Positions 18,415 through 59,889 of a stretch of 59,889 bases of DNA are shown in pieces. How positions within the stretch are numbered: position 1 is the stretch's first letter; every line of letters begins with the position of its first letter. Under the pieces are notes generated by a model, which was given only the letters and a program-made list of their open reading frames with translations, was not told where the DNA came from and searched no databases. Both the position numbers and the translations under genes were made by a program. The DNA is from a virus (Duplodnaviria > Caudoviricetes): the IMG/VR virus record IMGVR_UViG_3300010371_000040, positions 1 through 59,889 of that record; one strand, written 5' to 3'.

Positions 18415-20313
18415 ATGAGCGATTTCAACTGGGACGCCCTGCAGGAAGGCTTCTATGACTTCCTTTCTCACGTCCAAATTCTGAGTAAGGACGAGGGCCG
18501 CGTCCGCCTGCGCATGTACGACGCGCAGCGCTATTTCTTCGATGAGATTTTCGACGGCCTTCGCAACGACATCCACTGGTTCGTTTGCGGCAAGGGCAGG
18601 CAGCTCGGGATCACGACCGCATGCCTGATGTTCGACACCTTCTACGCCGGCGCCATGCCCGACGTGCAGGGCGGCATCGTGTTCGATACCACCGACAACA
18701 AGGAGAAGTTCCGCAAGCTGCTCGACGAGATGATGATGTCTCTGCCGCCGAGCCACGCGCTGCCGATCCGCAAAGGGGGCAACAACCGCGCCGGCATCAC
18801 GTTCGAAAACGGCAACATGCTGGACTACCTCGTCGCCGGCATCAAACGCGGAACCGGCACGCTCGGCAACTCCCGTGCGCTCAATTTCAGCCACGCGAGC
18901 GAATGCGCCTACTACGGCGACAGCGAGGCGGTGCAGGCATACAAGAACGTGCTGTCGGACGTGTTCCCGACCAGGCTGTACATCTTCGAGTCGACGGCCA
19001 AGGGGTACAACCTGTTCTACGACCTGTGGGAAGAGGCGGTCGCCGACGAGGTTGCCAAGAAGGCGATATTCATCGGCTGGTGGCGCAAGCGGACCTATAG
19101 CCACGCCAAGGGCACGCCGCTATTCCAGCGCTATGGGTGGCCGAAACTATCCGACGACGAGCGCGAGCGGTCCAAGATCGTTGATGACCTTTACGGGGCG
19201 AAGATCACGATTGAGCAATGGGCGTGGTATCGCCATCGCGCCGATCCGGCCGGACGCGCGAACGAGGAAGAGAACCAGTCCGAGCAGCGCGAGATGGTCG
19301 CGCAGGAGCATCCGACCCATCCCGAGGAGATGTTCCGCGAATCGGGCAACCCCTTCATCCCGTCGCAATATCTCGACCCGGCGATGAAGATCGCGCAAAA
19401 GGCGATGTTCAAGGGATACCGCTATCACCTCGGCGACGACATCTCGACCATGCGGCTGGAAAAGACGAAGTTCGTCAACCAGACGCAGATGCGCGTGTGG
19501 CAGGAGCCGTCGCCCACAGGCGTCTATATCGTCGCCGCCGATACCGCGTTCGGCATATCCGACGACGGCGATGCGCAATGCGCCCAGGTCGTGCGCTGCT
19601 ACGCCGACAAGATGGTGCAGGTCGCCGAGTTCTGCGACCGCAGCGTGCAGCCGTTCCAATTCGCGTGGATTCTGCTGCACCTATGCGGCTGGTACGGCGA
19701 CTGCCGGTTTATCCTTGAGCTCAACGGCGCCGGCGAGGCGGTGTGGACCGAACTCAAGAACCTGAAGCAGCGGGTCGAGAACGGCTCGCTCTATCCACCG
19801 CGGCCTTTCCCCGGCGACGACCCGAACGACGAGGACACCGCCGAAGCGCGCAACACCTATGCCCGGGTGCGGCAGTACCTGTTCCGGCGATCGGACAGCC
19901 TGGGCGGCGGCATGAACTGGCAGATGAGGACCAGCCTCGAGACCAAGTTCAATTTCATGACGCAGTTCGCCGACCGCTTCATGCTCGGCCAGTTCGATAT
20001 TTTCTCGGTGCCGGCGCTGAAGGAAATGCAGACGCTGAACAAGGACGGCCGCATGATCCACGCGGCCGGCAAGGGCAAGGACGACCGCCCGGTTACGCTC
20101 GGGCTGGCGACGCGGGCCTATATCGACGATATTCGCGCGCAGCTTGTCGGCAAGAACATGACGTTCGAGGCCGAGGAACTGAAGGCCCGCGAGGGCGGCG
20201 AGACGTTGCACGGGCGGTTTCTGAGTTCGATCATGGAGCGACAATTCGCGCTGAAGGCGGCGGACAGGCGGGCGGTGACGCGGCGCAAGCAGGGCAAGAA
20301 TTGGTCATGGTGA
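18415..20313 (+). CDS. terL: terminase large subunit
   Basis: Walker A KGRQLGITT, Walker B HASE, ESTAKG coupling motif, nuclease acidic residues (AADTAFG, ELNG, KDDR). Confidence 0.92.
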   Translation: MSDFNWDALQEGFYDFLSHVQILSKDEGRVRLRMYDAQRYFFDEIFDGLRNDIHWFVCGKGRQLGITTACLMFDTFYAGAMPDVQGGIVFDTTDNKEKFRKLLDEMMMSLPPSHALPIRKGGNNRAGITFENGNMLDYLVAGIKRGTGTLGNSRALNFSHASECAYYGDSEAVQAYKNVLSDVFPTRLYIFESTAKGYNLFYDLWEEAVADEVAKKAIFIGWWRKRTYSHAKGTPLFQRYGWPKLSDDERERSKIVDDLYGAKITIEQWAWYRHRADPAGRANEEENQSEQREMVAQEHPTHPEEMFRESGNPFIPSQYLDPAMKIAQKAMFKGYRYHLGDDISTMRLEKTKFVNQTQMRVWQEPSPTGVYIVAADTAFGISDDGDAQCAQVVRCYADKMVQVAEFCDRSVQPFQFAWILLHLCGWYGDCRFILELNGAGEAVWTELKNLKQRVENGSLYPPRPFPGDDPNDEDTAEARNTYARVRQYLFRRSDSLGGGMNWQMRTSLETKFNFMTQFADRFMLGQFDIFSVPALKEMQTLNKDGRMIHAAGKGKDDRPVTLGLATRAYIDDIRAQLVGKNMTFEAEELKAREGGETLHGRFLSSIMERQFALKAADRRAVTRRKQGKNWSW

Positions 20314-21977: not shown

Positions 21978-22330
21978 TGTCGGACCTCTACATCGTCACC
22001 GTCACGCTGACCACGAAGACGCAGCATCAGCTTTTCTTCGACACGCCGGGGAAGGCGCGCGATGCGTATGCCGCTCTGACGCACAACCAGACGCACCTGA
22101 ATGGACCGGCCGCCGTGCAGATCGAGGACGATTACGGCTGCAACATGAGCCTGCGCTGCATGGACATCGTCGCCGTCGAGGAACGCAACTGGACCCGTCA
22201 GCAGGAAAGCCAGGTCGAGGCGCAGCTGCATCAGGCGCGCGCGCAGGCCAGGGGTCAGCGCCGCGCGGCATCCGACCCTGAACTGAAATTCTTGGCATCC
22301 GCTCCGCAGCCGGGCATGTTGAGGGCATGA
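21977..22330 (+). CDS. hypothetical protein
   Basis: AAGGAG RBS, coupled start. Confidence 0.65.
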   Translation: MSDLYIVTVTLTTKTQHQLFFDTPGKARDAYAALTHNQTHLNGPAAVQIEDDYGCNMSLRCMDIVAVEERNWTRQQESQVEAQLHQARAQARGQRRAASDPELKFLASAPQPGMLRA

Positions 22331-22348
22331 AACCGCTCCGGTGCCGAC

Positions 22349-24046
22349 ATGCTGCTGCCATCCAGTGACCGCCTCGCCCGCTGGGCCAAGGAACGGGTGA
22401 TCGACCAGTGCCGCAGCAGCGTCGGCGATCGCATGCAGATGGCCCGGTCGATCAACACATGGCGATTCACCGGCAGCGATAGCGGGTCACAGGCGATCTA
22501 TAACCGCCTCGGAACCCACTGCGATAAGCTCTCGTCCGCGGTGTACTCGCCGGCCGACGTCCGCTACCAGATCGAGTACGAGTCCGACTATGGATCGATC
22601 TTCACGGACAGAGCCAAGGTCGCGGCCCGCTATCTGACGCGCGAGATCGCCCAGCGTAACCTCGACCTGTCGTTCCAGGAGGCCGTGGAGGAAGCCGTCC
22701 CGCTCGGTTGCGCGATCCTCAAGCACATCTGGACGCACCACGGCCCCGACGTCACCACGCTGATGCCGTGGCAGTTCGGTGTCTATAACGAGGCGGAAAC
22801 GGATCTCGATAAGCAGGAGGCGATGTGCGAGACGACCTACTTGCTGCCCGAGGAAGTCTGGCGCCGCATCAGCCACCGCTCGGACGCCAAGGAACTCTTC
22901 CGCCGGATCATGTCGCACTCCCGCCGTGCGTCTCAGGATGAGGTTCCGCCTGGCTTCATGCACCAGCTTCTGATGGCTGGCACCCCGCCGCTGATCCAGG
23001 ACCAAGGCGCGGCATCGAGCCCCGGCGGCATGATCTCGCTCACCGGCACGCCGGCGGTTGCGATGATGGCCGCCGAGATGCAGGACGGTCTCATCGAGGC
23101 GCACCAGGCGTGGGTGGTGAACGACGAGACCGGCGACTACACGACGATCCAGCTCATCGAGCCGGACATCCTGATCGCGCCGCGGCTGATCCGCTCGAAC
23201 CTGTTTTTCCCGCACGAGCACCCGTTCAATGTCGTGCGCGTCAATCCGCAGCGGAACTACTTCTGGGGCATGTCCGAGCTCTCGCAGTTGATCAAGCTCC
23301 AGGCGCTGCTGCGCGACCGCACCGAGGACGTGAAGAAGATCATGGGCCTCCAGTACGACCGTATCCGCGCGTTCATCGGCTTCTCGGGCATGAACGATGA
23401 GAAGTACGACCAGATGACCAACGAGGGGTGGCTGTCTGAGGAAAACCCCAACGCGAAGATCGACGACCTGACGCCACCGCTGCCCGAGAACGCATTCAAC
23501 GAGATCAAGATGATCATCGATTTCTTCGATGAGATCGCCGGGTTCGATAATGCGACGTCGGGCAAGGGCGAGCCGGGCATCCGGTCGGCGAACCACTTTC
23601 AGGGCGTGCTTCGGCAGGCATCCCCGCGTCTGCGCGACCGCGCAATCCGGGTCGAGCGCCAGTGCGCGGAGTTCGGCGAGAAGGTTTTGTGGCACTGCGC
23701 CGCGAAGGACGCCCGGGTTTTCTGGACGAAGACCGACGATCCGGAGAAAAAGACCGATTTCCTGCTGTCACAGCTTCCCGATGACGCTCGCGTGCTGGTC
23801 GACAGCCATTCCGCGAGCCCGATCTACGAGCAGGACCATGCGAATACGGCGGCGTTTTTGTTCAAAAGTGGCGCCATCGACAGCGAAGATTTGTTGAACC
23901 TTCTTCCGGTACCAAACAGAGATTTTCTCATCGAGAAACTTAAAAACAGGGAAATATCGAAGCGCCAGATGCTGGAGAGTCTTCCGCCCGAGCTACGCGC
24001 CCAAGTCATTACCGGAAAGACCGTCAGCCACGCCGGAAAGCATTGA
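22349..24046 (+). CDS. portal protein
   Basis: 565 aa, downstream of terL and upstream of scaffold/capsid; YFWGMSELSQLIKLQ motif like podovirus portals. Confidence 0.8.
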   Translation: MLLPSSDRLARWAKERVIDQCRSSVGDRMQMARSINTWRFTGSDSGSQAIYNRLGTHCDKLSSAVYSPADVRYQIEYESDYGSIFTDRAKVAARYLTREIAQRNLDLSFQEAVEEAVPLGCAILKHIWTHHGPDVTTLMPWQFGVYNEAETDLDKQEAMCETTYLLPEEVWRRISHRSDAKELFRRIMSHSRRASQDEVPPGFMHQLLMAGTPPLIQDQGAASSPGGMISLTGTPAVAMMAAEMQDGLIEAHQAWVVNDETGDYTTIQLIEPDILIAPRLIRSNLFFPHEHPFNVVRVNPQRNYFWGMSELSQLIKLQALLRDRTEDVKKIMGLQYDRIRAFIGFSGMNDEKYDQMTNEGWLSEENPNAKIDDLTPPLPENAFNEIKMIIDFFDEIAGFDNATSGKGEPGIRSANHFQGVLRQASPRLRDRAIRVERQCAEFGEKVLWHCAAKDARVFWTKTDDPEKKTDFLLSQLPDDARVLVDSHSASPIYEQDHANTAAFLFKSGAIDSEDLLNLLPVPNRDFLIEKLKNREISKRQMLESLPPELRAQVITGKTVSHAGKH

Positions 24047-24068
24047 GGGGAGGCTTTCGCCTCCCCTC
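24045..24068. terminator. hairpin between convergent portal gene and pentamer array
   Basis: GAGGGGAGGC-TTTC-GCCTCCCCTC, perfect 10-bp stem, GAAA loop on the minus strand. Confidence 0.8.
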
Positions 24069-24070
24069 CC

Positions 24071-24450
24071 CTGCCTGACCAGACCTCTGCTCACCGCGCC
24101 TCGCGATACCGCACCCCGGCGCAGCTTGCCAAGCCAAGCCAAACTCTAAATCTCTAAAATAATCCTCGCCGCACCTATCCATTGCACACCTCACCGAGGC
24201 CGTCCTTGCCCAGCACCGCCCTACAGGACCAAGCCGCGCCGAAACTGAAATTGATAAATAAATCCTCGCCAGACCACACCCGGCCACGGCTGACCAAACA
24301 CTGCACCGCCACACCCAATTCGACCTTGGACCGCCGGACCTAAGCCCGCCATTCCACGCGCAACCCTGCCGAAGCATTCCGCGCCTAGCCTTGCCTAACA
24401 CCGCACAACCTCGCCGGGCCATGGCTAGCCAATCCCAGCCGTGCCGGACC
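24071..24450 (-). ncRNA. putative guide-RNA array of GGY-NN pentamers (three blocks)
   Basis: Blocks 24450-24261 (38 units), 24240-24161 (16) and 24140-24071 (14), all in one 5-nt register; 42 of 68 units start GGC/GGT; two 20-nt AT-rich linkers each preceded by GGCGAGGATT. Confidence 0.8.
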
Positions 24451-24452
24451 CC

Positions 24453-25076
24453 TTATCCTGCCTCAATCGAAAAGTTGGAAATGCCGAAACGACCGTAAGT
24501 CGGCCGGAAATCGCCGACGCCGACCAGACGACCAGCGGACTCGATGGTCTCGCGCAGGTCGTTGGTCGAAATGTACTCAGGTAGGCCGCACATCAGTTGG
24601 ATTTCGGCGGCCCAACCCGCCCGCATCGCAGGACGCGTGCGCGTGATCGCCGACCGTTGAATGACGACCCGCCGCCGATCCTCGTAGTCCCAATCCGGGG
24701 TTCCGAGAGAGGCCAATTCGGTCAGGCTGACGATCCCGGCGTTGAATAAATCCATCGCCGACTTCCGGGGGCTGCGCGGGTCCTGACGGAACTTCGCCGC
24801 CATCACGATCGACCGCCGCAGGTATTCGCCGGGCAGGCAGAGCATCCCCGCCTCGTCGCGGTAGACGTAGCTTTCCAGATCGTCGCTCTTTTTGGCCGCG
24901 CTGTTCTTCGCCGCCTTCGCCTTGGTCTCGACGGCCTCCGAATTCCACCGATGGAACAGGATCGCCGCCGATCCCACGATTGTGACGCGCGCGATGTACG
25001 GCTCGCTGAGTGCGATGTCCGAGTTTCCGCCGGGCGAAACGCCGTCGATGACCTTCAATGCTGCTGACTTTGCCAC
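24453..25076 (-). CDS. solitary Cas7/RAMP-like protein
   Basis: N-terminal beta strand (ARVTIVGSAAILFH), LPGEYLRRSI, C-terminal glycine loop AGRLVGVGDFRPTYGRF; GTG start behind AAGGAG. Confidence 0.75.
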   Translation of the reverse strand: MAKSAALKVIDGVSPGGNSDIALSEPYIARVTIVGSAAILFHRWNSEAVETKAKAAKNSAAKKSDDLESYVYRDEAGMLCLPGEYLRRSIVMAAKFRQDPRSPRKSAMDLFNAGIVSLTELASLGTPDWDYEDRRRVVIQRSAITRTRPAMRAGWAAEIQLMCGLPEYISTNDLRETIESAGRLVGVGDFRPTYGRFGISNFSIEAG

Positions 25077-25160
25077 TTGCAATCTCCTTGCCTAAAAACG
25101 CCATATGTCGTATGGCTCGCGCATTGCTATTAGCACTACGTATTGCAGGGAGCAAGCATT

Positions 25161-25316
25161 ATGTCCGAGAAAGTCGCGGTAACCTTCCGCATCGAGAAAA
25201 AGCTGAGAGACCAGCTTGAGAAAATCGCACATTTCGAGCGCCGGACGATGACCGGCGTCATTGAAGCGATGATCGATGATCGGTGGAAGCAGACGCCGGA
25301 CGGGAAGGCCGACTAA
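25161..25316 (+). CDS. ribbon-helix-helix (Arc/CopG-like) regulator
   Basis: Not in the ORF track; MSEKVAVTFRIEKKLRDQLEKIAHFERRTMTGVIEAMI..., GGGAG RBS, divergent from the RAMP gene. Confidence 0.75.
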   Translation: MSEKVAVTFRIEKKLRDQLEKIAHFERRTMTGVIEAMIDDRWKQTPDGKAD

Positions 25317-25591
25317 AACTGCGGCTTGTTCGTCTGCTCGAACGGCACTCGCTTCCGCACCAACGCATGCAGCGCACTCCCGATGCTCTCGGCACCCATG
25401 ATCTGCGCCGCCGTATCAGCATCGATGCCAGGATAGAAACCCTTGTTTCCCGCCGGGTTCTTGACCGTCGGCGCGAAGTGAACGTGAAGCTGTTGCGCCT
25501 GTGCGTCGTACCCGATTTTCAGGATGTGGCTTGATAGCACTTCCTGCATCTCGACGGGCGGCGGGGCGGGTTGCTGATTTTCTTCGTCCAT
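25313..25591 (-). CDS. KTSC domain protein
   Basis: VLSSHILKIGYD...LHVHF...FYPGI...AESIGS..HALVR. Confidence 0.8.
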   Translation of the reverse strand: MDEENQQPAPPPVEMQEVLSSHILKIGYDAQAQQLHVHFAPTVKNPAGNKGFYPGIDADTAAQIMGAESIGSALHALVRKRVPFEQTNKPQF

Positions 25592-25593
25592 CT

Positions 25594-25851
25594 CTAGCCT
25601 CTAAAGTCTCCGAGTTCGGAAATCATCCGTTCTATTTCTGGATCGACCGACAACATCGAAAGGCACTCAACTGGCGGCTGCATCTCTAGCCGCCGCCCAA
25701 TTTCATATGCGAAATTATCGGACGCTTTTTCGAATTCAGACCACACACCGGCCCGAACATCGAGACGCCCAGATGCGATAGTCGGATACATCTCTTCCAA
25801 GAGTTTCAGCTTGCCGGGTGTGAGCATGTTACCCGTGCCGACACCCCTCAA
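25594..25851 (-). CDS. hypothetical protein
   Basis: ORF between the HTH and KTSC genes. Confidence 0.45.
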   Translation of the reverse strand: MRGVGTGNMLTPGKLKLLEEMYPTIASGRLDVRAGVWSEFEKASDNFAYEIGRRLEMQPPVECLSMLSVDPEIERMISELGDFRG

Positions 25852-26011
25852 GGTACTTGTTCACGTCTTCCGGCATGAAGTGATATCGGCCCTGAACCTT
25901 GTAGTACGGCGGGCCGTATCCGTTGCGCATCCAGGACCGGAGAACCTGCAGGCTGACCCCGAGAATCGATGCCGTGTCCTTCGGTTTCAGGCTTTTGGAC
26001 ATATCGACCAT
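25829..26011 (-). CDS. excisionase/AlpA-like HTH protein
   Basis: LKPKDTASILGVSLQVLRSW..GYGPPYYK..GRYHF..DV. Confidence 0.8.
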   Translation of the reverse strand: MVDMSKSLKPKDTASILGVSLQVLRSWMRNGYGPPYYKVQGRYHFMPEDVNKYLEGCRHG

Positions 26012-26213
26012 TTCGAAACCCTTCCGAGCGCTGACCGTCACTAATGCGAGCAAATATCACCTTTCGCGCGCTTGAACAATTAGATGCTCGCCGGATAGTT
26101 GCCCGAGAAATCAGCGGTCTCTCTGGGCTTTCGCCTCCGGCGCTACGTCGGGCGAGGTATCGAGGAACCCTCCGAGCGCCGTTGATGGCAACGCCAACCC
26201 AAGGAGAGAAGGA

Positions 26214-26255
26214 ATGAAGCGTCGTCGCCATTCCGGCCGTAAGGGCCGCCGGTAA
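26214..26255 (+). CDS. 13-aa protamine-like peptide
   Basis: MKRRRHSGRKGRR behind AAGGAGAGAAGGA; heads the capsid operon. Confidence 0.55.
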   Translation: MKRRRHSGRKGRR

Positions 26256-26260
26256 TCCGG

Positions 26261-26701
26261 GTGCCTCCGCTTCCGCCACAACTCGCAGCCGCCTTGGCCG
26301 GGAAATCCCCGGCCGCAGGTGCAGGCTCGGCACCGGGTCAACCTCCCTTTGGTTCCTCCCCGATGACGGCGCCCACACCGAACCGCGGCATGCAAGGCGA
26401 GGGCCTGTCCCTCGTGGCGGAAGCGAAGCGCATGCTCGAAAAGGCATTGTCGATGCCGGGCCTGGGTGCCGAAACCGACATAGGACAGGCGATCCTCAAG
26501 TCGCTCGAAGCCATCGGCAAGGTTTTGCCGGAAGGCACAGTCACTCCGGGAATGCGCGATGCCGGCATGCAGCAGTGGATGATGCAGGGCCGCCGCGAGA
26601 ACCCGATGGCCGCAATCATCGCGGCGCTTCAGGGCGGTGGTGGAGGCGGAACGCCCGCTGCCCCCGCGCCCGGTGGCGCCGAACTTCCCGCCGCCGCATA
26701 G
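26261..26701 (+). CDS. head-module protein
   Basis: Position; Pro/Ala/Gly-rich. Confidence 0.7.
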   Translation: MPPLPPQLAAALAGKSPAAGAGSAPGQPPFGSSPMTAPTPNRGMQGEGLSLVAEAKRMLEKALSMPGLGAETDIGQAILKSLEAIGKVLPEGTVTPGMRDAGMQQWMMQGRRENPMAAIIAALQGGGGGGTPAAPAPGGAELPAAA

Positions 26702-26719
26702 CAGCAGAGGACTACACCA

Positions 26720-26887
26720 ATGGCTAAGGATATGTTCGGGTCGTTGCCCACCGGCATCCCGAAGAACAGCAACCAGGTCGAGCGAGTCGACCTGACCCAG
26801 GCGGACATGGGTGCCCGCGCTTCGCATATGCCGAAGCTGGAGAAGAACCCCAAGAACGCCGTCAAGCACGTGACGCAGGGGCGGTAA
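26720..26887 (+). CDS. small head-module protein
   Basis: GAGG RBS; MAKDMFGSLPTGIPKNSNQ... Confidence 0.6.
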   Translation: MAKDMFGSLPTGIPKNSNQVERVDLTQADMGARASHMPKLEKNPKNAVKHVTQGR

Positions 26888-26888
26888 C

Positions 26889-27524
26889 ATGGCGCTGATC
26901 GAGATCGAAGACAGCATCGCCGCCGAGCTCGCCAAGAACGGCATTCGCTACACCGACGCCAGCACGACCTATAAGGGTGCGCGCGAGTCCCAGGCCGCGC
27001 TCGCCAAGATTATGGGCGGCCCGCAGCGGATGGAGTTTCTGAAGCTGTACAAGGCAGCGTTCCCGGACGCAGTCGTGCCCGAGCTCGATGCCGCTGCGCC
27101 CGTCAATGATGCCGTCGCCGCGCTCGCCAAGGAATTCTCGGACTATAAGGCCAGGGTCGAGGAAAAAGAGACCGAGCGCGAGAAGAAGCTGCGCGAGGAA
27201 TCCGCTTCGCAGACCGTCGCGAACGGCCGCAAGATGCTCCGCACCGACAAGAAGCTCGATGACGAGGGCGTCGATGCGGTCGAGAAGATCATGCTCAAGC
27301 ACGGCATCCAGGACTACGAGGTCGCGTTCAAGGTGTTCAACGCTGATCGCGAACCTGACCCGCAACAGCTTCCGTCCAGTTGGGCAGGCCGCTCGCTCGA
27401 CTGGTTCGAGAAGCAGGAGAACAAGCCCGACCAGGAACTTCTGCTGAAGGATCCCGCCGCGTTCAAGCGGCAGGAAATCGGCAAGGTCTTGGCCGAGGCC
27501 CGCGCCGGCAAGCTGGCGGCATAA
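26889..27524 (+). CDS. scaffolding protein (putative)
   Basis: Charged coiled-coil immediately before the capsid gene. Confidence 0.6.
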   Translation: MALIEIEDSIAAELAKNGIRYTDASTTYKGARESQAALAKIMGGPQRMEFLKLYKAAFPDAVVPELDAAAPVNDAVAALAKEFSDYKARVEEKETEREKKLREESASQTVANGRKMLRTDKKLDDEGVDAVEKIMLKHGIQDYEVAFKVFNADREPDPQQLPSSWAGRSLDWFEKQENKPDQELLLKDPAAFKRQEIGKVLAEARAGKLAA

Positions 27525-27536
27525 AGGAGAAACGCA

Positions 27537-28559
27537 GTGACCTTCCCGCTTTCCGGAACTGGCATCGCACCGACAGGGCCAGTCTTCAGCGAACTCAACG
27601 CCCTGACGCGCCGCGCATTCATTCCGACGGTGGTCACGCAGCTCTATTTCTCGAGCCCGTCCCTGTTCATGCTGATGGGTGCGGCCCAACGCGCGGCCGG
27701 CGGCCTCAACCAGATCACGGTGCCGGTGCAGGGCCAGTCGATGGTCCAGGGTGCCTGGACCGGCTATGCGGGCAACTTCAACAGGCCTCAGGTCATCCCC
27801 GGCGTTCAGCCCGCCCAGTGGATGCTGAGCTACTATACCGTCCCGGTCCCGCTGGTCATGGGCGAGGCGCTCATCCAGTCGACCGAGGCGATCGTTCCGA
27901 TCATCGACGTCCGCATGAACGACGTGTACGCGGTGATGGCGCAGCAGTTCTCAAGCGCGCTGTTCAGCAACAACTCGGCGAATTCGCTGATGCCGCAGGG
28001 TTTCGTCGAGGCATTCGACGATGGCAGCCAGGTGCCGGTCTACGGCGGCATCGCGCGCAACCAGGGCGGAAACCAGTTCTGGCAGTCCAACCGCATCACC
28101 AATGTCGGCGCCAACAACACGCGCGCCGCCTGGTCGACCTATCTGATCCAGGTGACCAAGCTGGCCGGCGGCGAGACGCCCGATTTCGTGCTGATGTCAC
28201 CCGGCGACTTCGCCGTCCTGGCGGCGCAGTTCATCGGTGTCGAGCAGATCAACATACGTCCGGGCCAGCAGTTCACGATGGACACGAACATCCGGTCGGG
28301 CTTCCCGAACGTGATGATCAACGGGGTGCCGTTCTTCCTCGACTACTCGTGCCCGACCGGCACGGCGTATATGGCGAACAGCAAGTATTACGCCATGCAT
28401 ATCAGTGAGGACGCGCAGTTCGACTTCACCGGGTTCTATAGCCTTGTTCCATTGGGGCAATTGGCCGTCGTAGGCGTAGCTTACACCGGGTATAATGTGA
28501 TTTGCTCAAAGCCCGTTTCTGGTGCAAGTTTCAGTGGCATCACTGGGGCGCCATTTTAG
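27537..28559 (+). CDS. major capsid protein
   Basis: 340 aa, strong AAGGAG RBS, biased codon use, position after scaffold. Confidence 0.8.
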   Translation: MTFPLSGTGIAPTGPVFSELNALTRRAFIPTVVTQLYFSSPSLFMLMGAAQRAAGGLNQITVPVQGQSMVQGAWTGYAGNFNRPQVIPGVQPAQWMLSYYTVPVPLVMGEALIQSTEAIVPIIDVRMNDVYAVMAQQFSSALFSNNSANSLMPQGFVEAFDDGSQVPVYGGIARNQGGNQFWQSNRITNVGANNTRAAWSTYLIQVTKLAGGETPDFVLMSPGDFAVLAAQFIGVEQINIRPGQQFTMDTNIRSGFPNVMINGVPFFLDYSCPTGTAYMANSKYYAMHISEDAQFDFTGFYSLVPLGQLAVVGVAYTGYNVICSKPVSGASFSGITGAPF

Positions 28560-29278
28560 GACTTGCGATTACTTAGTAGTGCCTCTGCAATAGAGTACAT
28601 GTCTTCATCGGTAGTTGAGCCCTTGAAGGCATTGAGTGACCAAAGGATGAACCGGCAGTTCGACTGCACATATCCGAGCTTCGGCTCGATCTTGTCGATG
28701 GAAGGGTGAAAGGTAAAAGGTGTTCCTCCGGGCATACCAATCGCGAATGGGATATTTGAAAGCTCGCATCGGCCAGTCCAGCGGGCTAAAGCCCATTCTG
28801 CCGTTAGGTCGAAAGGCATTCCTCGCTTTTCCGCCCGCCTTCGCACGCCATCCAGCAGGGGCTTCCACGGCTCTTCCAGCCTCCGTTGCTGGTACTGCAC
28901 CTTTCTCCGGCCATTATCAGCATGGCGATAAGCCTCGTGAAGCCGGTAATAATTCCTGGTTTTCCAGCGGTTTCTGCATTCAAAGCAGCAGAACTTCTGC
29001 GTTCGCCTTGTTTGCACGAGCGGGCGCTTGCATTCCAGGCATTCTGTCTCGGCTAGCGCAGGTTTTCCGGCGTTTCGTTTTTCGCGCTCTGCGGCCAATC
29101 TCGCGTCTCGATGGCGCAGATAGCATTGGCGCTGCTTATATCGAAGTCTGCACTTCTTGCCACAGTAAAGGCGAGTTGAGATGCGCGTCTGAAAAGATGA
29201 TCCGCATTGCTGGCAGTTTCGTTCCTCAAGCTTCATTCCGTCCTCACGGGATTTTTGCCTTCGTAAAAGGGGTATCAT
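28556..29278 (-). CDS. free-standing His-Me-finger homing endonuclease with tandem zinc fingers
   Basis: CQQC..YC..KC and CLEC..FC..EC repeats; RCELSNIPF...PSIDKIEPKLGYVQSNCRF..N. Confidence 0.75.
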   Translation of the reverse strand: MIPLLRRQKSREDGMKLEERNCQQCGSSFQTRISTRLYCGKKCRLRYKQRQCYLRHRDARLAAEREKRNAGKPALAETECLECKRPLVQTRRTQKFCCFECRNRWKTRNYYRLHEAYRHADNGRRKVQYQQRRLEEPWKPLLDGVRRRAEKRGMPFDLTAEWALARWTGRCELSNIPFAIGMPGGTPFTFHPSIDKIEPKLGYVQSNCRFILWSLNAFKGSTTDEDMYSIAEALLSNRKS

Positions 29279-59555: not shown

Positions 59556-59889
59556 TTCGCCCGCGCCTCGACTTCCGCGATGATCTTTTCCGCGAGGTCA
59601 CGGCACTGCGATCCCGTGCGCCAATGCGCGCGTGACTCGTCGAAAGTGAACCAGCGGCAGCCGGCGCTGATGCGCCAGGTGCCGTCGCGCAGCGGAACGC
59701 CAAGAAAGCGATAGCCGCGGAGATCTTCGCCGCCATCGATGAGGGCGGTCAGGCCCGGGTTGTTCACGATCCAGACGTCGGTGGCGCCCGACAGGTCCGG
59801 CAGGGCGGTCAGGCCCGGGTTGTTCACGATCCTGACGACGGTGGCGCCCGACAGGTCCGGCAGGGCGGTCAGGCCCGGGTTGTTCTCGA
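59552..59889 (-). CDS. C-terminal part of the LRR protein
   Basis: NNPGLTALPDLSGATD repeats, then ISAGCRWFTFDESRAHW (DUF5758-like). Confidence 0.8.
   Translation of the reverse strand, partial: ENNPGLTALPDLSGATVVRIVNNPGLTALPDLSGATDVWIVNNPGLTALIDGGEDLRGYRFLGVPLRDGTWRISAGCRWFTFDESRAHWRTGSQCRDLAEKIIAEVEARAK

Follow-up and report, generated by a model that had tools for sequence, protein, structure and literature searches.

What is encoded by the G-rich pentamer tracts that lie behind a probable portal gene in the genome of an uncultured soil phage, and against which sequences would they be directed? The window, that is, the whole stretch of DNA that was analysed (59,889 nt), is a complete or near-complete IMG/VR record (CheckV 98%), which also encodes an SU10-type adaptor and replication and recombination genes. 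Its minus strand, read from position 24,450 to approximately 24,061, consists of 5-nt units of the form GGxNN in a single unbroken register, and three blocks of these pentamers occupy the approximately 400 nt separating the probable portal gene on the plus strand from a convergent gene, vipr, on the minus strand. The features of this region are as follows.

22349..24046, plus strand: probable portal gene (565 aa), convergent with the VIPR cassette
24045..24068, minus strand: terminal hairpin, a 10-bp GC hairpin that closes the array; it overlaps the portal stop codon
24061..24140, minus strand: block 3, 16 pentamers
24141..24160, minus strand: spacer 2, 20 nt, AT-rich
24161..24240, minus strand: block 2, 16 pentamers (14 NN units, then GGCGA GGATT at 24170-24161), a putative vrRNA guide tract
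24241..24260, minus strand: spacer 1, 20 nt, AT-rich, exactly 4 units long, so that the register is preserved
24261..24450, minus strand: block 1, 38 pentamers (36 NN units, then GGCGA GGATT at 24270-24261), a probable multi-guide vrRNA tract
24453..25082, minus strand: vipr, encoding a Cas7-like RAMP of 209 aa (phmmer PDB match and AF2 fold; start uncertain)

Recomputation reproduced exactly both the coordinates and the two lists of NN dinucleotides given in the initial annotation (36 plus GA TT for block 1 and 14 plus GA TT for block 2). GG was in phase in 27/38, 12/16 and 12/16 units of blocks 1, 2 and 3, respectively (51/70 in total), corresponding to binomial P values of 5e-22, 6e-11 and 6e-11 against a minus-strand GG frequency of 0.078; the strict form GGY was present in 23/38, 9/16 and 10/16 units (42/70 in total). 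The register was unchanged across all 78 units and both spacers, and block 1 starts 2 nt past the vipr stop codon on the same strand. When the entire 59,889-nt window was scanned for period-5 GG (at least 7 of 10), minus-strand positions 24,051-24,460 were the sole region returned, and the plus strand gave nothing. Block 1, as had been remarked earlier, is more than twice as long as the others (38 versus 16 units) and is degenerate at units 25-27: GG is missing from 11 of its 38 units, and units 25 (TCCAA) and 27 (AATTG) are the only ones with a G-free constant part.

The array as a whole was not reported by Tandem Repeats Finder because its units vary; the sole part reported was 24,128-24,142, a perfect plus-strand GCCAA x3 made up of block 3 units 1-3. 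The locus contained pentamers only, with no CRISPR-type direct repeats. A search of Rfam (E-value mode, positions 22,000-27,000) gave five weak matches, none of them within the array, and no sigma-70-like promoter was found in 23,950-25,250, spacer 1 included. A lookup of sequencing runs placed the stretch in one DNA run only, a soil metagenome that is its likely source, and listed no RNA run.

The identity of the neighbouring gene was revealed by a phmmer search of the PDB, in which the ORF matched 36pp_D, "SUSP1 Vipr protein" (E 3.2e-7, residues 69-203). In this alignment, E71, K82, R138, D177 and R179 are conserved and W178 is replaced by F, the G-loop reading GVGDFRP versus GVGDWRP in SUSP1; the N-terminal residues H17, K33 and R39 fall outside the aligned part. 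In SUSP1 Vipr, D177, R179, R138 and E71 hold GGY, and K82 is a clamp for the non-target strand (10.64898/2026.04.26.720927). An AF2 model of the window protein (29 homologues, pLDDT 80.6) matched Csm3/Cas7 backbone chains in a Foldseek search (94 at E<=1e-3, the best at approximately 1e-6). The ORF also matched phrog_4652 and had homologues in abundance (n=6972); Pfam, NCBIfam and PADLOC assigned it to no family. The candidate start codons are TTG at 25,082, GTG at 25,076 behind AAGGAG, and TTG at 25,058 as in a 201-aa database copy, the GTG being the likelier on sequence grounds. In 25,074-25,089, AAGGAG is followed by the TTG one base later and by the GTG 7 nt later, and a terminator-like hairpin with a T-run lies just upstream of vipr on the minus strand (25,100-25,116).

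Around the locus, PADLOC and NCBIfam returned no matches for eight proteins, and neither cas1/cas2 nor other cas genes were found. Published VIPR loci "typically" hold a vap accessory gene (10.64898/2026.04.26.720920). None of six neighbouring ORFs (an Arc-like gene at 25143-25316, a KTSC gene at 25313-25591 and four others) had a homologue in 160 Vipr loci (E<=1e-4), and the largest neighbour family spans at most 30 of those 160 loci. Since vap is only typical of the published loci, a locus in which none is recognised may still be a member.

The first description of VIPR (Viral Interference Programmable Repeat) dates from 2026, and natural targets are known for few of its clades. The system comprises a phage-borne minimal RAMP, Vipr, built of an RRM core with a G-loop and a thumb, and vrRNAs of alternating GGY and NN, whose repeat tract is followed by a conserved 3' tail; seven types have been published (10.64898/2026.04.26.720920). 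Only the NN bases pair, with double-stranded DNA, one target base being skipped per unit; no PAM is needed, targets may lie on either strand, and the skipped base is usually the wobble base of a codon (10.64898/2026.04.26.720920). The vrRNAs of published systems are transcribed, matured to a length of about 100 nt or less and recovered with Vipr on purification (VIPR preprints, 2026). We assign the present locus to VIPR because it combines homology to Vipr, the RNA-binding residues and the Cas7/Csm3 fold with the array format, and blocks 1 and 2 are very probably vrRNA guide tracts of this system. The idea of a gapped guide put forward in the initial annotation is right in kind and had already been published in 2026: a Vipr gene adjoins the array, the format is that of vrRNAs, and the pairing rule works for block 3. 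The part of the proposal that was not borne out concerns the targets of blocks 1 and 2, as described below.

On the published mechanism, the cassette would be read on the minus strand from vipr through the three pentamer arrays to the strong hairpin. Vipr protomers would each bind one GGY along the RNA and present the NN bases, which would pair with double-stranded DNA with every third target base skipped, and transcription of the bound gene would be blocked. Blocks 1 and 2 may act likewise on genes of rivals outside the searched collections.

Targets were sought in mismatch-tolerant local scans along ungapped diagonals, with shuffled guides as nulls. The sets scanned were the array-masked window; 84 loci (4 portal-relative and 80 viral Vipr loci); the whole contigs of 8 related phages; 11 loci matched by block 3; 80 bacterial Vipr loci; and all of these pooled (1.75 Mb), at gap sizes 0-3. 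Block 3, whose NN code begins TT TT AA GC GG GC AT GA GC GA GA CT, gave a clear result. At skip 1 it matched the 3' region of the portal gene at 21/22 over units 1-11 in the relative L001/G001 and at 21/22 over units 2-12 in G410, and weaker portal matches were found in L002, L003/G002, G003 and G412. In the pooled 1.75 Mb of relatives it scored 22 at skip 1 versus at most 14 for 8 shuffles; it scored 16, 14 and 14 at skips 0, 2 and 3, and at skip 0, too, the 8 shuffles stayed lower (12-14). A search for guide-encoded residue sets at the protein level recovered block 3 only.

The exact pattern of block 3 units 3-11 (18 fixed bases) occurred at 11 loci in IMG/VR versus approximately 1 expected, an expectation calibrated on the 18 random-like matches of a 16-base pattern (block 2 units 1-8) and lying somewhat above 1 in GC-rich coding DNA, the block 3 core being made up of common GC-rich codons. 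All 11 matches were in frame and encoded K/N-A-G-A-I/M-D/E-A-E/D-D/E. Six of the matched frames have direct support as portal genes (L164, L166, L168, L169, L172 and L174), provided by tblastn to the window protein for L164, L166, L169 and L174 and by PHROG portal families for L168, L169, L172 and L174. Two further frames, L170 and L171, share the motif context of L172 and are presumably portal genes too; L165 is a tape-measure gene, and L167 and L173 carry no assignment.

Three further features of the window are as follows.

18415-20313: large terminase
23858..23890, plus strand: own portal site, encoding LFKSGAIDSED and matched by block 3 units 1-11 at 18/22
27537-28559: major head protein

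The probable portal gene lies downstream of the large terminase gene with two genes intervening, and its tblastn relatives L169 and L174 match the phrog_156 portal protein; the gene itself had no direct family match, and blastn of 22349-25320 against the phage collection gave no match. Among its 120 best portal homologues, the motif was present in 30 and the exact KAGAIDAED in 4 (69-81% identical proteins), while the phage's own version, KSGAIDSED, was unique among the 30 motif-bearing proteins. At the own site, the two units with both bases mismatched are GC in the guide but fall on AGT and AGC, both of them Ser codons; relatives carry GCN (Ala) or TCN (Ser) at these two positions. Block 3 fits the portal genes of related and more distant phages better than that of its own phage, and the AGY serines of the latter, in a near-target only about 170 nt from block 3, look like self-escape by recoding. 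The locus thereby adds to VIPR a guide aimed at a structural gene common to relatives, with a self/non-self difference that can be read in two codons.

Neither vipr nor arrays were found in the eight related phage genomes examined, and in the four portal-relative loci other genes lie directly behind the portal gene; we therefore regard the VIPR cassette as an accessory insertion. Elsewhere in the structural module, the major head gene is immediately followed by an HNH endonuclease gene (28556-29278) in the opposite orientation. The two ends of the record (1-130 and 59760-59889) fall within the same tandem 60-nt repeat and share identical stretches of 60 nt (e.g., 53-112 and 59767-59826), so that the contig, labelled linear in IMG/VR, probably closes on itself or broke inside the repeat.

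For blocks 1 and 2, however, none of the local sets gave anything above shuffled guides. In the pooled 1.75 Mb, the best score of block 1 was 18 at skip 1, a value reached by 2 of 40 shuffles; that of block 2 was 16 at skip 0, which 4 of 100 shuffles attained in a series of 12 tests. The best self-scores of both blocks at gap sizes 0-3 were within the range of shuffled guides, in agreement with the earlier statement that no convincing match in the window could be seen by eye. The large collections (IMG/VR and metagenomes) were searched with exact seed patterns only, block 1 being seeded at two windows (units 10-18 and 28-36).

Block 2 units 1-8, IMG/VR: 18 matches, chance level
Block 2 units 8-14, IMG/VR: 54 matches, best extension 22/28 (L150), chance level
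Block 2 units 3-12, metagenomes: 0 matches
Block 2 units 4-11, metagenomes: at least 120 matches, best among those listed 23/28 (L194), chance level
Block 1 units 10-18, IMG/VR: 0 matches
Block 1 units 28-36, IMG/VR: 0 matches

With up to 3 mismatches allowed, the full 14-unit pattern of block 2 had no match in 405 bacterial genomes (5 plus 401 of one class, one being common to both) or in 5 viral records, and the reversed-pattern controls likewise gave 0. Thus, in none of the collections searched did the gapped targets predicted for blocks 1 and 2 stand out from shuffled guides at any gap size from 0 to 3. We consider this blank to be weak evidence because the large collections were searched by exact seeds and to a limited depth, and soil phage diversity, moreover, is poorly sampled. 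A blank is also common for working guides, since identifiable natural targets were reported for only 20 of 41 SUSP1-clade vrRNAs (10.64898/2026.04.26.720920).

Three individual candidates were rejected. Block 1 units 10-18 scored 16/18 against the adaptor-like gene of the phage itself (32494-32520), the skipped base being the wobble base; this score lies within the range of shuffled guides, and we attribute the match to chance. The candidate had no exact matches in IMG/VR, G001 and G003 lack a fitting sequence at the corresponding sites, and the peptide encoded by the guide agreed with none of 120 homologous proteins more closely than with that of the phage. Block 1 units 15-35 matched an RHS-repeat gene (L318, 9710-9772) at 30/42 with the skip on codon position 1, which 2 of 40 shuffles equalled. 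The skip-0 match of block 2 is a contiguous 16-nt match at L304:741, equalled by 4 of 100 shuffles in 12 tests, and skip 0 is without published support.

Taken further, these findings raise the possibility, which we hold tentatively, that the cassette is a weapon for excluding kin. Block 3 would silence the portal genes of sibling and distant phages at KAGAIDAED, the carrier having escaped through the change of two Ala to AGY Ser codons; blocks 1 and 2 would hit other essential genes of as yet unsequenced rivals; and block 1 would be a tail-less, single-register tract of 36 units that holds several guides or forms one very long filament. If this is true, the architecture of block 1 is one that has not yet been studied experimentally.

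Blocks 1 and/or 2 could instead be worn, obsolete or decoy vrRNA tracts that soak up Vipr without a live target. The failure to find a target in any search would be expected on this account, as would the 11 of 38 block 1 units that lack GG, two of which contain no G at all in the constant part; units 4, 15 and 20 of block 1 (GGAAT/GGATT) could be relics of former guide ends, and some published vrRNAs do redirect Vipr to decoy sites (10.64898/2026.10.15.759431). However, block 3, which has a clear class of targets, is equally degenerate (12/16 GG), the perfect register over 78 units and the spacers argues for selection, and a target blank is, on the SUSP1-clade figures, an ordinary outcome; we therefore judge decay or decoy function to be unlikely. 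It is very improbable that the arrays regulate the phage's own genes through partial matches rather than those of rivals. The 18/22 match of block 3 to the nearby 3' end of the own portal gene would suit such a role, but higher scores are reached on the portal genes of relatives (21/22 in L001/G001 and in G410), the protein-level fit is perfect in four close homologues whereas the own KSGAIDSED stands alone among 30, shuffled guides do as well as blocks 1 and 2 on the phage's own sequence, and the published systems showed no self-targeting at >=80% (10.64898/2026.04.26.720920).

An open frame (ORF 24024-24422, 132 aa) runs through the region, which might accordingly be a small protein gene rather than a guide array. 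It might also be protein-binding DNA or a G-quadruplex, two-tetrad quadruplexes being conceivable for GGNNN runs, or else a repeat connected with packaging or with ends. Open frames are, however, to be expected where pentamers are rich in G and poor in stops, and this one continues into the 3' end of the portal gene. All of these accounts leave three things unexplained: a Vipr homologue next door, arrays that accompany vipr in nearly all of the 80 viral loci, and a match between block 3 and portal genes that keeps the codon phase. We give these accounts hardly any credence.

With the blocks read as vrRNA tracts, their 3' ends and the subdivision of block 1 can be considered. Blocks 1 and 2 both terminate in GGCGAGGATT, which is followed by a 20-nt AT-rich spacer, and the initial annotation took GGCGAGGATT for a handle. 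A constant 3' end is plausible: in many arrays of relatives the last bases are GGYGAGG, with a T-rich stretch behind them, and the final array position is enriched in GGA units (61/477 versus 22-35 at the next seven positions), GGATT and GGAAT being the commonest among them. A structured handle found no support in the folding predictions, in which the junctions of GGCGAGGATT and spacer folded no better than shuffles (z 0.08 for block 1/spacer 1 and z 0.56 for block 2/spacer 2); the hairpin at 24045-24068 reached -34.6 kcal/mol (z -4.0), and none of 200 shuffles was equally stable.

Block 1 had also been suspected of being two fused guides. A composite is plausible, since arrays of at least 30 units are common in the clade and contain internal target-matching segments of 11-15 units. 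Because relatives carry long arrays with internal matched runs, a block of 36 units is ordinary for the clade, and block 1 probably contains more than one guide, two or three by our analysis. Candidate boundaries are the degenerate units 25-27 and the handle-like GGAAT/GGATT units 4, 15 and 20 within the block.

These comparisons are based on a survey of 80 viral and 80 genomic Vipr loci with identities of 59-71%, nearly all of which have arrays of this kind on the strand of vipr. Period-5 GG arrays adjoined vipr on the vipr strand in nearly all of the 80 viral loci. The 422 arrays called in the clade had a median of 15 units, with 9-16 units in 250 and at least 30 units in 59, and GGY made up 87% of their GG units. 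When 425 arrays were cross-scanned against 1.66 Mb by seed-and-extend, many guide-target pairs with matched runs of 10-19 units emerged. The one-base-skip rule holds in this Vipr clade too. Long single-register arrays contained internal matched runs at units 27-41 of 45 (L055), 31-44 of 48 (L057) and 1-14 of 28 (L329), and no special boundary sequence was seen flanking such runs. A further point added by the locus is that arrays far beyond 9-16 units are common in a very widespread Vipr clade of many bacterial phyla.

Among known systems, the locus is close to the type II VIPR systems of Escherichia phage SUSP1 and a Pseudomonas fulva prophage (10.64898/2026.04.26.720920; cryo-EM companion 10.64898/2026.04.26.720927). 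It has in common with them a small RAMP with the same G-loop and thumb residues, GGY/NN pentamer arrays beside the gene on the same strand, a phage-borne location with other phages as the objects of attack, and matches with a 1-nt skip on codon wobble positions, seen here for block 3. Unlike those systems, the present one has no recognised vap and no vrRNA upstream of vipr. The window protein is only distantly similar to SUSP1 Vipr (phmmer E 3e-7, residues 69-203), and where SUSP1 has an approximately 40-nt pseudoknot tail, GGCGAGGATT and the 20-nt AT-rich stretch have no predicted structure. In the studied clades, arrays have 9-16 units, versus 36+2 in block 1, and GGY is adhered to more strictly than here.

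Similar in architecture are the VIPR loci with staggered or long arrays and a relaxed consensus (10.64898/2026.04.26.720920, figs S17-S18), which share the long uninterrupted multi-guide tracts that reach 117 units in relatives of the present locus. In contrast to the staggered arrays, the three blocks and spacers here keep one register with 20-nt AT-rich separations, whereas many relatives have a one-base offset. The lower self-match of block 3 (18/22) than its match to relatives (21/22) resembles that of solo and vipr-targeting vrRNAs, for which a lower self-match and a higher non-self match have been reported (10.64898/2026.10.15.759431, section 8); the target here is instead the portal gene of sibling phages and not, as described there, a satellite recombinase, a regulator or a VIPR component. 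The locus further resembles the Class 1 CRISPR backbone (Cas7/Csm3 filament) in its fold, in having one protomer per RNA period and in a thumb that breaks the pairing periodically; it differs in having no CRISPR repeats, no cas1/cas2 or other cas genes, and a period of 5 nt with 2 pairing, versus 6 nt with 5 pairing.

Several further observations were made among the relatives. In three viral loci (L046, L059 and L049), vipr is flanked on either side by single-register tracts of 83-117 units. Many loci show a shift of exactly one base, often an extra T, from one tract to the next. Members of the clade at 46-70% identity occur in genomes (L302-L381) labelled as Pseudomonadota, Planctomycetota (many of them Phycisphaerae), Actinomycetota, Bacillota, Cyanobacteria, Acidobacteriota, Bacteroidota and Patescibacteria and in one Bathyarchaeia MAG, and this cross-phylum identity is unusually high for an accessory protein of phages. 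Finally, a 15-unit vrRNA at L070 (3118-3192) matched the 3' end of vipr, at the G-loop codons, in many loci with up to 11 perfect units, and it matched the vipr gene of the window (24484-24528) at 22/30 with the skip on the wobble base; judged from these matches, it is a vipr-targeting guide within the clade.
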